DNA of 62,669 nucleotides, counting the filler, from Thelocarpon superellum (Eukaryota), in assembly GCA_026025795.1 (NCBI GenBank). It is 2 parts of 2 records of this genome, joined end to end, with 100 filler letters (N's around TTAATTAATTAA, not from the genome) between each part and the next. Parts side by side here need not be neighbours in the genome. Positions count along the whole stretch, not along the records: positions 31,474 to 62,669 come from JAPEUG010000194.1; 1 more part is not named here. One strand, given 5' to 3'. Below, in pieces: positions 48,066-51,350 of this stretch (position 1 is the stretch's first letter; every line of letters starts with the position of its first letter). The notes beneath the pieces were generated by a model. That model was not told the DNA's origin, searched no databases, and saw only the letters and a list, made by a program, of their open reading frames with translations. Both the position numbers and the translations under genes were made by a program.

Positions 48066-49381
48066 TCAATCACCGCCTAATCGTCGACCAGCGCCGCGAC
48101 TTCTCCAGCTGCCCGTTAGACCGGCCAAACCAGAGGAAAGGCCACTGCTCGAGCCTTGCGATGGCGCAGGCCTTGCAGGATTGGGGGTGAAAGCGGTCCC
48201 GTGTGCTCGCGCGATGCGCGTGTGGCTCTTCGCGCGAGTACTACCTAGAAACCATTGCTTCACAAATGTCGGCGTCTGCAGGACGTTCTGTCCTCCGCCA
48301 AATGTCGGATACAGCCGGGTCAAGAAATCGTAGAGGTGGGCGGCAAGTAGTCCACTTCCTTGGACGAGTGCTGCTTCGGGCGATTGCATCAACAGCGTCA
48401 TCAACAGCATCACAAACGGAAGCCACCGCACTTGGAAGGTGACGACGAAATACGTCATCTTCTGCGTCGGCTTCTCTTGCGCATACGTATACGTCAACGC
48501 CATCACTAGGGCTATGACGCGGATCAGCCATGAACAGCTCGGTAGGCATGGCGGACTACCTTGGGTGAAGATCATCCCGCCAAACAGTGTGATGTTGGTG
48601 AACTGTAGTTTTGGTCAGCCGCGTTCCCCACACATCGTCCCCGAACGTTGAATGCAGCGGTATAGACAAGATAAAGTCAAGGGACAGAGATGTAGGGATC
48701 CGAAACCATCGCACGTAAACCAAGCATCACGCGGATTCTTTTCTCAATCAGGCCCACCATGCCTGTGCCGCACCTATGCCCTATGGATTGATTGCGAATG
48801 ACGGGCATAGGCGAAGCACAGGGGTAATCTTCCTCGTTTCCAGGAACCGCTGTAGCTAGGGGAGAGGCTACGCGGGCAGATATGCGAGGTGCAACCCAAA
48901 CACGCGACCACATTGGGGCGGGCGAGAACGTCCACGGAGATGGCATGCTTACCAAGATGACTGATGCGACAAACCCCAGGTAGACGAAGAAGTCTCCGGG
49001 TCCGCTAAATCGTGGCGAGTCTTTCTCAATGGAGCTCCCATAGGTGTAAACTAGTCCAAGTCAGCAAACCTGTGTCGATCGCTGGAGTGGCACCGCGTAC
49101 TAAAGTATGGATCGAGCAGGATTCCCAAGCTGGGACCGGTGATCAAGAAAGAGGTGAAGACGCGCCAGATCTGAGGAGGAAACGTCCAAAGATATCTTTG
49201 ATGAAAGATGAGGAGACTCCCAGGAAGGAGGTGTGAGTAGACTAAGATCGACGTTGCACATGCCGCTGCCGCGAGGGTTCTGAGTCTCGTTAGATCTGGC
49301 TGTGCTAACTCCACGAAGGTGTTTGGCAGGGACCATTCGATCTCACCTCGTCACCGGCGGAGCCGCCCAGAACGCCTCCAT
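48066..49381 (-). CDS. Derlin (Der1/Dfm1-like) ERAD protein, 5 exons
   Basis: MEAFWAAPPVTR|TLAAA, PPQIWRVFTSFLITG, SPRFSGPGDFFVYL, WLPFVML, GLLAAHLYDFLTR, SHP-like WRSRGAGRRLG. Confidence 0.9.
48688..48892 (-). ncRNA. Candidate intronic H/ACA box snoRNA (snR43/SNORA9-like guide) in Derlin intron 3
   Basis: Hairpin with CCUCG/CGAGG base and CCGCGUAGC/GCUAC-A-GCGG upper stem. H box AGAUUA at 48825-48830, further hairpins, terminal ACA at 48691-48693 plus 3 nt. Pocket UCUGC/UCCUG is complementary to LSU rRNA CAGGA-UA-GCAGA. Confidence 0.72.
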
Positions 49382-49785: not shown

Positions 49786-51350
49786 ATGACCGGATCCAAG
49801 TAAGAGCTGTATGCTCTCAGTCCTTGCGCGGTAGGCTAACTCACGGCAGGAAAGCGCTCCTTCTCGGGGCAGGCTTCGTGACCAAGCCGACGCTCGATCT
49901 GCTCAGCGAATGGGGCGTCCACGTCACGGTTGGTGGGTCAATCACGCCCAGATGAGACGCCTGAGAGGCGTGCTGACCAGGGCAGCTTGTCGGACCTTAG
50001 AGAGCGCCAAGAAATTGGCCCACGGTGTCAAGAATGCCACGCCCATCTCGCTCGACGTCGTCAACCCGGAGGCGCTTGATGAAGAGGTGGCCAAGGTCAA
50101 TGTGGTCATCAGCTTGATTCCATACACCTTCCACGCCACCGTCATCAAGTCGGCCATCCGCAAGAAGACGAACGTGGTGACGACCAGCTATGTGTCTCCT
50201 GCCATGCTGGAGCTCGAGAAAGAGGTCAAGGAGGCGGGCATCACCGTGATGAATGAGATTGGCCTGGATCCGGGCATTGACCATCTCTATGCCGTCAAGA
50301 CCATTGACGAAGTTCACAAAGCTGGCGGCAAGATCTTGGGCTTTCTATCGTACTGTGGAGGCCTTCCGGCCCCCGAGGCCTCGGACAACCCTTTGGGATA
50401 CAAATTCTCCTGGTCCTCCAGAGGCGTCTTGTTGGCCCTCCGAAATACCGCCAAGTACTACCAAGACGGGAAGATCGTGGAGATTCCAGGCCCGGAGCTG
50501 ATGGACACCGCCCAGCCATACTTCATCTACCCGGGCTTTGCCTTTGTGGCATACCCTAACCGGGACTCCACGCCCTACAAGGAGCGTTATCACATCCCAG
50601 AGGCCCAGACCATCATCCGAGGCACACTCCGCTATCAAGGCTTCCCCGAATTCGTCCGCGTCTTAGTGGATATCGGTTTCTTGAGCGAAGACAAGAAGGA
50701 TTTCTTGAAGCCGTCCGACCACCCCATCACCTGGAGGGAAGCGACGCGAAAGATTCTGAACTCCTCGTCGGGCAACGAATCGTATGGAGCCCTGTTCCAA
50801 TCGTTCGTCGCAGCGGTTGCTAACCAGAAGTAGGGATCTCATCTGGGCCATCTCCTCGGCGACCAAATTCCGCGACACCAAGGAGAAAGAACGGATCATC
50901 TCTGGGTTCCGCTGGCTGGGTCTCTTCTCAGACGACAAGATCGTCGGACGCGGCACTCCGCTCGATACCCTGTGTGCCACGCTGGAACGGAAGATGGAAT
51001 ACGAGGCCGGCGAGAGAGACATGGTGATGCTGCAGCACAAATTCGAGATCGAGCACAAAGACGGGAGCAAGGTAAGGCCCTCTTTCTTCGCCATGATCAC
51101 CTCATGGGCACTGACGCAGTCTGCGCAGGAAACGCGGACCTCGACGCTGGTCGACTATGGCGATCCCAAGGGATACTCGTCCATGGCGAAGCTGGTCGGC
51201 ATTCCGTGCGCGGTCGCCGTGCGCTTCGTGCTGGACGGCGCCATCTCGGAGAAGGGCATCCTGGCGCCCATGACCCCGGCCCTCAACAACCCGCTGATCA
51301 AGGAACTAAAGAAATACGGCATCGAGTGTCGGGAAAAGACACTAGCGTAG
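49786..51350 (+). CDS. LYS9: Saccharopine dehydrogenase (NADP+, L-glutamate forming), multi-exon
   Basis: KALLLGAGFVTKP, VISLIPYTFH, VTTSYVSP, MNEIGLDPGIDHLYA, SYCGGLPAPEASDNPLGYKFSWS, RGTLRYQGF, MVMLQHKF. Confidence 0.97.

Follow-up and report, generated by a model that had tools for sequence, protein, structure and literature searches.

The box H/ACA small nucleolar RNA (snoRNA) snR43 of yeast guides the formation of two pseudouridines (Psi), Psi966 of 25S ribosomal RNA (rRNA) and Psi73 of 5.8S rRNA, as entered in the tables of two papers (PMC5699541, PMC8307265). The table of the latter labels the large-subunit (LSU) site as part of the A-site-finger region. In surveys of chicken and Arabidopsis, the snR43 counterparts for the same LSU site are ACA9 and AtsnoR151, both of which are intronic in other genes. 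In Canzler et al. 2018 (PMC5824354), the Schizosaccharomyces pombe RNA AJ632018 is placed in family HACA_9, which matches snR43 and is conserved outside Taphrinomycotina. Neurospora crassa ACA9 is a 201-nucleotide (nt) intron-encoded RNA, detected by cDNA and northern analysis and entered as an orphan (Liu et al. 2009, PMC2780460, Table 2); the text of that paper names neither snR43 nor Der1. Because the families HACA_2, HACA_3 and HACA_6 follow the numbers of N. crassa ACA2, ACA3 and ACA6, HACA_9 presumably includes N. crassa ACA9. Here, a relative of these RNAs is described from a 62,669-nt stretch of Thelocarpon superellum DNA (GCA_026025795.1), the whole of which is called the window below. 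The element (positions 48688-48892, minus strand; Table 1) lies in an intron of a Der1-like (Derlin) gene. It is very probably an intron-borne H/ACA snoRNA, the counterpart of yeast snR43 and vertebrate ACA9/SNORA9, that guides modification of the U966-equivalent.

The Rfam model of snR43 (RF01256, clan CL00027) aligns over its entire length (1-207 of 207) to 48688-48891 on the minus strand when a 221-nt segment is scanned (32.9 bits, E-value: 1.7e-05; approximately 0.005 when scaled arithmetically to the whole window). This Infernal search had been proposed as a check in the first-pass annotation of this DNA, and it returned the expected family over its full length, though under the gathering score. 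One relative from a metagenome (L082) is likewise matched full-length by snR43 (44.2 bits, E-value: 5.7e-07). Homology to snR43 is indicated by these E-values and by the end-to-end alignment, despite the sub-threshold scores.

The snR43 consensus and the window RNA share three hairpins with a long middle hairpin, the pocket letters UCUGCC (5') and GUUC (3'), an AAGAU hinge, and a terminal ACA or AUA with a short tail of 3 nt, which for the window RNA is a predicted one. They are also alike in length (approximately 205-207 nt) and in their predicted 25S target. In contrast to snR43, the 3' guide strand of the window RNA is shifted in register by one (UCCUGG, 6 base pairs [bp]) with one U unpaired, and its loop motif and third-hairpin pocket strands are not found in the displayed parts of the yeast consensus. 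The window RNA is encoded in a Der1 intron, whereas yeast snR43 is what we take to be a stand-alone gene. Chicken ACA9/SNORA9 (GGgACA31) and AtsnoR151 resemble the window RNA as intron-encoded snR43 counterparts; compared by description only, they differ from it in having two hairpins, a length of approximately 130-150 nt and other hosts (an mRNA intron and RPL15B, respectively). The pairing of snR43 with ACA9 in the chicken and Arabidopsis surveys agrees with the link to SNORA9 that had been drawn from the sequence. N. crassa ACA9, also compared by description only, is similar to the window RNA in size (201 versus 205 nt) and intron location and unlike it in being listed as an orphan; based on size, intron location and the family numbering, it is probably the orthologue. 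The window RNA is thus a previously unannotated addition to a known family rather than an RNA of a new kind. It had been called hidden, which is correct with respect to annotation (Rfam at its own threshold finds nothing) but not with respect to the family, which has already been described in fungi.

Relatives were collected from metagenome contigs using a pattern of three window pieces, namely both pocket strands and the H box with 21 letters fixed in all, which returned 89 loci. A covariance model, R1, was built from 58 distinct full-length homologues with the window excluded; this set leaves out duplicates of the same sequence and the four copies truncated at a contig or locus end (L026, L027, L035 and L062). 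R1 matches 83 of the 89 loci and the window at E-values up to 0.001, and none of six chance loci. In the 62.7-kb window it has a single match, 48688-48892 on the minus strand (179.6 bits, E-value: 2.3e-50, model positions 1-207), and the 21 pattern letters cannot explain this score. The six loci (L001, L012, L021, L050, L078 and L083) are unrelated pattern matches that have neither Der1 exons nor an R1 match, and their number is near that expected by chance.

Members of the family are 194-213 nt long. Column identity averages 0.75 inside the element, compared to 0.40 in the 5' flank and 0.42 in the 3' flank. Conservation starts 2-3 bases before the hairpin-1 stem and stops approximately 3 bases after the ACA box, and it is on this limit that the predicted 3' end, 3 nt past ACA, rests. 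As a check independent of the pattern, contigs of relatives that were found only via the central core were inspected, and the 5' pocket letters UCUGCCCG are kept in all three whose loose ends extend to this position. A comparison of orthologous Der1 introns, the second check proposed at the outset, shows that the 83 metagenome loci have kept the ACA box, the boundaries and the hairpins, the last with compensatory changes.

In the minimum-energy fold of the 205 nt, both hairpin 1, with its 9 + 10 nt pocket, and the middle hairpin of 19 bp are formed. The first-pass annotation had described a hairpin 1 with a CCUCG/CGAGG base, UCUGC and UCCUG in its pocket and a GC-rich upper stem, an H box AGAUUA 15-16 nt from the top of the pocket, and a strong middle hairpin and a last hairpin leading to ACA plus 3 nt. 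All of these parts were recovered in place on the minus strand, with the H box 16 nt from the upper stem. The folding energy of the single sequence is only modestly better than that of shuffled sequences (z = -2.09; 7 of 200 shuffles are as stable), and chance is excluded by the comparative data rather than by the fold.

Covariation was tested on the raw MAFFT alignment of the 58 sequences (2647 cells), with the H/ACA structure written by hand. In this unfitted alignment, 82.2% of cells are paired; sliding the 3' partners by 1-3 columns lowers this to 36.8-45.9%. Double-sided changes occur at 33 of the 46 pairs. The covariation score is 0.329 versus 0.10-0.13 for slid partners, and the observed value is reached by none of 500 shuffles. 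The model-fitted alignment, which leans towards its own structure, has 87.0% of cells paired and double changes at 34 of the 46 pairs. In hairpin 1, the lower stem is paired in 96.5% and the upper stem in 93.9% of cells (unfitted); the closing pair alternates between A-U (23), G-C (19) and G-U (4; n = 58), and two pairs of the upper stem alternate between C-G and U-A in about half of the sequences. Double changes are found at 16 of the 18 pairs of the middle hairpin, the two helices of which are paired in 87.0% and 78.8% of cells (unfitted). In the third hairpin, the outer lower stem is paired in 90.7% of cells (model-fitted), and the upper stem, which is variable in sequence and poorly aligned by MAFFT, in 55.8% (unfitted).

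AGAUUA is present in all 62 distinct members, although all but one of its letters were fixed by the scan pattern, and it is separated from the hairpin-1 upper stem by 16 nt in 56 of the 62, 15 nt in four and 17 nt in two. In 41 of the 59 full-length distinct members, 14 nt separate ACA from the upper stem of the third hairpin; the other 18 have 15-17 nt here. The terminal box is ACA in 58 of these 59 and AUA in one (L064:216-425), which in this respect is like the Rfam consensus of yeast snR43. The hairpin-hinge-hairpin-tail arrangement of the H/ACA class is present with covariation, and the extra middle hairpin is as in snR43.

Table 1. Features of the T. superellum element and of its host intron (window positions).
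Feature	Position	Strand	Basis and remarks
Predicted mature box H/ACA snoRNA, snR43/ACA9 type	48688..48892	minus	205 nt; Rfam snR43 and model R1 matches, conservation boundaries
Hairpin 1: lower stem, two-sided pocket, 9-bp upper stem with bulged A, 10-nt loop	48832..48889	minus	fold
Hairpin 1 lower stem, CCUCG with CGAGG	48889-48885 with 48836-48832	minus	sequence
Hairpin 1 upper stem, GC-rich, one bulged A	48875-48867 with 48856-48847	minus	fold
5' pocket guide strand UCUGC	48876..48880	minus	complements LSU GCAGA just 3' of the predicted target U-A; also 5.8S GCAGA
3' pocket guide strand UCCUGG	48840..48845	minus	complements LSU UCAGGA just 5' of the predicted target U; last pair G-U
H box AGAUUA (ANANNA)	48825..48830	minus	16 nt from hairpin-1 upper stem; hinge after hairpin 1
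Middle hairpin, 8 + 11 bp, 21-nt loop	48762..48822	minus	fold; 19 bp; also in Rfam snR43 consensus
Middle-hairpin loop motif GUCAUUCGC	48794..48802	minus	complements LSU GCGAAUGAU, 33-41 nt 3' of the predicted target U
Third hairpin with pocket: lower stem GGGCC/GG(AU)CCC; 10-bp upper stem, 48736-48727 with 48718-48708	48695..48755	minus	folds
Third-hairpin 5' pocket strand UUGAGAA	48741..48747	minus	complements LSU UUCUCAA
Third-hairpin 3' pocket strand GGUU	48704..48707	minus	abuts upper stem; first G 14 nt before ACA; complements LSU (A)ACC
ACA box	48691..48693	minus	followed by UCU to 48688, the predicted 3' end
Host intron	48603..48952	minus	350 nt; GTAAGC donor; splice signals in sequence and flanking frames fit
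Host-intron branch site CTGAC	48618-48614	minus	sequence
Host-intron acceptor AG	48604-48603	minus	sequence; last four intron letters ACAG
Der1 exon upstream of host intron	48953..49050	minus	translation; counterpart found by tblastn in 64 loci, upstream of the RNA and on its strand
Small Der1 exon downstream of host intron	48560..48602	minus	43 nt; frame continuous with next exon, which starts at 48511

The host gene is encoded on the minus strand, and the translations of 48069-48509 and 49102-49350 have the conserved domain PF04511 (DER1; E-values: 4.3e-13 and 5.2e-04, respectively). The host intron had been singled out as unusually long. It does lie between two in-frame Der1 exons, and the flanking introns are short (approximately 50 nt at 49051-49100 and 48 nt at 48512-48559). 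By sequence and translation, the Der1 reading frame closes across the host intron, the 43-nt exon and the next intron. When the window's own Der1 exon translations were compared to the 89 loci by tblastn, 80 of the 83 family loci proved to have Der1 exons flanking the element on its own strand (on both sides in 63, upstream only in 15 and downstream only in two); the three family loci with no Der1 match have short flanks. The identity to the window protein is 40-62% in the large downstream exon of the family loci, and the RNA is thus kept in the same Der1 intron across quite diverged hosts. Among the literature matches listed, no relevant prior report of a snoRNA associated with Derlin/Der1 in fungi was found.

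The branch-point A (48615) is 73 nt downstream of the predicted 3' end of the RNA (48688), and the 3' splice site is 85 nt away from this end. The next large Der1 exon follows at widely differing distances in the relatives (92-242 nt, median 127). A stop-to-stop frame (48677-49060) reads GNEEDYPCASPMP across the element, as anticipated in the claim that annotation based on open reading frames (ORFs) would mistranslate it as a peptide. The 48-nt Der1 intron at 48512-48559 (minus strand; GTAGTC...CATAG) is in frame and lacks a stop codon, so the stop-to-stop frame 48066-48614 runs through it and an ORF caller would add 16 false residues. The gene divergent from Der1 (49835-50830, plus strand) encodes a saccharopine dehydrogenase (Pfam Sacchrp_dh_C, E-value: 9.7e-64; Sacchrp_dh_NADP, E-value: 5.3e-18).

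The hairpin-1 pocket is complementary to the LSU segment around the U966-equivalent. That snR43 guides yeast Psi966 in a conserved LSU segment had been put forward from recall; the literature tables cited above agree, and a printed fungal LSU holds CAGGATAGCAGA. The basidiomycete LSU printed in PMC12287172 contains CCCTCAGGATAGCAGAAAC, and the Zymoseptoria tritici 5.8S rRNA printed in PMC12314099 contains GTGAATTGCAGAA. In the window RNA, UCCUGG (48845-48840) can pair with UCAGGA and UCUGC (48880-48876) with GCAGA, leaving U-A free at the top of the pocket. The duplex with CAGGA-U-A-GCAGA has 6 + 5 bp, with 15 nt from the first pairing guide residue to the H box. An H/ACA pocket is expected to show two-part complementarity around an unpaired U-N at 14-16 nt from the box, and this is what is seen here, with one extra unpaired guide U. 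The claim of exact pairing on either side of the U-N therefore holds for the complementarity of both strands but not for U48846, which is left unpaired. Of the 62 distinct members, 46 have G and 16 have A as the guide residue that follows UCCUG, so that pairing with the rRNA U next to CAGGA is always kept. As judged from sequence, the element has the complementarity to the U966-equivalent by which the snR43/ACA9 group is recognized. Placement of the pocket on the neighbouring U of CCC-U-C was rejected by hand, as the 5' strand does not fit. The 12-letter target motif has no match in the window with up to one mismatch allowed.

The 5.8S sequence GAA-U-U-GCAGA could pair with the same pocket by only 3 + 5 bp, with UUC (48846-48844) opposite GAA. 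This pairing is a plausible reason for the presence of U48846, and one pocket could serve both yeast snR43 sites. Decatur and Schnare are said to have reported in 2008 that a single yeast guide element is used for both.

Words from the intron are found in DNA runs from moss metagenomes and in two equally large metatranscriptome runs. When one metatranscriptome run (X2) was placed on 48450-49100, a 167-letter contig was obtained, the 135-nt middle of which is identical to 48695-48829. Both of its 16-letter ends are what we take to be Illumina adapter, and the 135-nt insert would accordingly lie wholly inside the element. This insert is the one hint of a stable RNA. If the library was prepared by the usual stranded protocol, and only then, the adapter orientation would place the RNA on the minus strand. 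Three further X2 contigs (151-156 letters) are 80-90% alike over a central core, and their loose ends are read as relatives' versions; in the middle hairpin of one of them, U-A is replaced by C-G and G-C by A-U. On 48779-48863, run X2 holds short contigs from at least two relatives' versions besides the identical one, and the moss-metagenome DNA runs hold two further variants. Over the 651 nt of 48450-49100, run X2 gave no cover on the flanking exons or the remaining intron and no joints, an absence that is uninterpretable.

The processing, protein binding and rRNA modification that we infer for this RNA would be as follows. The RNA would be transcribed within the Der1-like pre-mRNA, freed from the spliced 350-nt intron and trimmed to approximately 205 nt, with H/ACA proteins protecting it; the proteins that bind RNAs of this class are Cbf5, Nop10, Gar1 and Nhp2. 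The mature RNA would act in the nucleolus. Its hairpin-1 pocket would bind LSU rRNA on either side of one U, with UCCUGG on UCAGGA (5') and UCUGC on GCAGA (3' of U-A). This U, the equivalent of yeast 25S U966, would be set approximately 15 nt from the H box and converted to pseudouridine by Cbf5. The same pocket may also pair, more weakly, with the second yeast snR43 site in 5.8S rRNA. The original proposal of an snR43/SNORA9-like guide of approximately 205 nt is supported by the Rfam match, R1, covariation and pocket complementarity, the guiding itself by sequence only.

Two other parts of the RNA have potential rRNA complements. The middle-hairpin loop, which is outside the scan pattern, carries GUCAUUCGC in 25 and AUCAUUCGC in 20 of the 62 distinct members (RUCAUUCGC, 45 of 62). 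The complement GCGAAUGAU is located 33-41 nt 3' of the target U, as counted on the LSU printed in PMC12287172. The chance of such an 8-mer match within 200 nt is approximately 0.3%, a rough estimate made before allowing for the few motifs examined. In L072:1077-1270, the loop of the middle hairpin is short and lacks the conserved UCAUUCGC motif; barring a fault in the contig, at least one lineage can thus do without the motif.

In the third hairpin, GGUU abutting the upper stem 14 nt before ACA and the strand U(U)UGAGA(A/G) are found together in 30 of the 59 distinct full-length members, the window included. The latter strand is 1-2 nt from the upper stem in 28 of these 30 and 4 nt from it in the window. 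On the 3' strand, GG is kept in 59-60 and UU in 57-58 of the 62 members. The LSU sequences that these two strands complement, (A)ACC and UUCUCAA(A), flank a U-A. The LSU stretch ACCTATTCTCAAAC was found printed only as an animal 28S primer, and a 15-letter LSU motif including AACC was not found printed in the literature searched. Fungal LSU presumably has AACC before UUCUCAA, and the predicted U would then be three nt before yeast Psi1042, which we take to be the snR33 site. Two other placements of the third hairpin were rejected: on the snR33 site itself, 5 rRNA nt are left unpaired, and on AACCAUC-U-A the 5' strand does not fit. UUGAGAA is replaced by AUGGAUG in 18 and by AAUAGAUG in one of the 59 full-length members. 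The variant loci are L004, L007, L011, L015, L027, L032, L034 (AAUAGAUG), L042, L044, L059, L066, L068, L069, L072, L074, L075, L080 and L085, and the AUGGAUG-type pocket has an extra U after GG on the 3' side. No rRNA complement for the AUGGAUG/AAUAGAUG strand was found by hand.

It is conceivable, if rather doubtful, that the RNA grips a stretch of approximately 90 nt in LSU domain II at three collinear places, namely through the hairpin-1 pocket, the middle loop and the third-hairpin pocket. The pairing of RUCAUUCGC with GCGAAUGAU would then be an accessory docking or folding contact. We know of no accessory docking contact of this sort in modification-guide H/ACA RNAs. The 3' hairpin of chicken ACA9 holds a second guide, for a site in the LSU stretch served by yeast snR33, and the third hairpin of the window RNA complements the same neighbourhood. 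Canzler et al. 2018 (PMC5824354) report snR33 as not found in Pezizomycotina.

Several points weigh against an snR43-type guide with this target. The score of 32.9 bits is less than the Rfam gathering score of 60 bits, and the element is not called a member by Rfam's own rule. An Rfam scan of the whole window at gathering thresholds returned no matches, a 551-nt scan with E-values up to 10 returned no H/ACA family (the 221-nt query has laxer filters than these longer scans), and an snR43 match at E-values up to 1 was present in only one of eight short relative loci scanned. Weak matches to microRNA (miRNA) models and to sR7 in the 551-nt scan were treated as chance. Because the scan pattern, drawn from the window, fixed 21 pocket-strand and H-box letters, the pocket core and H box are conserved partly by construction. 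RNAalifold proposed other hairpin-1 pairs on the raw alignment. The RNAalifold structure, in which the guide strands and H-box region are paired with other segments, was rejected because the 5' stem is misaligned in several rows and the pair counts of the H/ACA structure are far better. The duplex with the LSU is not fully canonical, as U48846, which lies between the upper stem and the 3' guide strand, has no partner, and the target sequence was taken from the printed rRNA of other fungi rather than of this species. A contig from an RNA library is suggestive but is no proof of transcription, strand or ends, as such libraries can contain DNA. Finally, N. crassa ACA9 (201 nt, intronic), the probable orthologue, is listed as an orphan for which no rRNA complement was found.

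This last point would be expected if the element were a genuine H/ACA RNA with a pocket that does not direct Psi at the U966-equivalent, so that it either is an orphan or acts mainly as a chaperone of rRNA folding or processing via its other conserved complementarities. The extra unpaired U at the pocket top, a target duplex of just 5 + 6 bp and the rRNA complementarities of the conserved loop and third-hairpin strands are in keeping with such a role. It is nonetheless improbable, as the pocket letters are common to the consensus of yeast snR43, the target of which is established, the G/A alternation facing the rRNA U keeps pairing in 62 of 62 members, the box distance obeys the 14-16 nt rule, and Canzler et al. 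group the fission-yeast member with snR43. The conserved block could also be a cis-acting structure of the Der1 pre-mRNA, involved in splicing, intron retention or autoregulation, rather than a trans-acting small RNA, given that the element is always in the same Der1 intron (80 of 83 loci) and that the RNA-library cover by identical sequence is a single contig. However, the element matches the snR43 model and has the full H/ACA box and distance geometry, its conservation ends approximately 3 nt past ACA and not at the splice signals, and the Arabidopsis and chicken counterparts are in unrelated host genes, all of which make a cis-acting function very unlikely. Yeast snR43 is presumably an independently transcribed gene, which also counts against this function, as the element does not need Der1. 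It is hardly to be expected that the middle hairpin is the precursor of a miRNA-like small RNA, a role that would be compatible with the snoRNA. Its stem has 19 bp, and 48761-48825 is weakly matched by several Rfam miRNA-precursor models (E-values: 0.17 to 10), but the scores are 11.8-18.1 bits compared to cut-offs of 60-100 bits and the matches are on both strands. Furthermore, this hairpin is an integral, covarying part of the snR43 architecture and is most conserved in the loop, not in a stem arm.

For one pseudouridine of the LSU, in its A-site-finger region, the element provides, as an intron-borne snoRNA of the snR43/ACA9 type, a candidate guide that can be tested. It is a non-coding gene that would be missed or mistranslated by ORF-based annotation, and Rfam thresholds miss it as well. 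R1 recovers the family in 83 of 89 candidate loci, and this approach could be used to annotate it across filamentous fungi. The snoRNA inside accounts for the length of this Der1 intron, several times that of the neighbouring introns, and for its retention across hosts with 40-62% identical Der1. If the extra complementarities are real, this would be an H/ACA RNA with several contacts on one rRNA stretch. The third-hairpin pocket, present in about half of the family, would then act around (A)ACC-U-A-UUCUCAA to give a second pseudouridine approximately 73 nt downstream of the first. The second site would be three nt upstream of that of yeast snR33, and it would occur in fungi for which no snR33 was found; the arrangement echoes the second guide of vertebrate ACA9. 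Current understanding is not overturned by this RNA; its value lies in annotation, in a fixed Der1 host intron and in two extra complementarities that can be tested.

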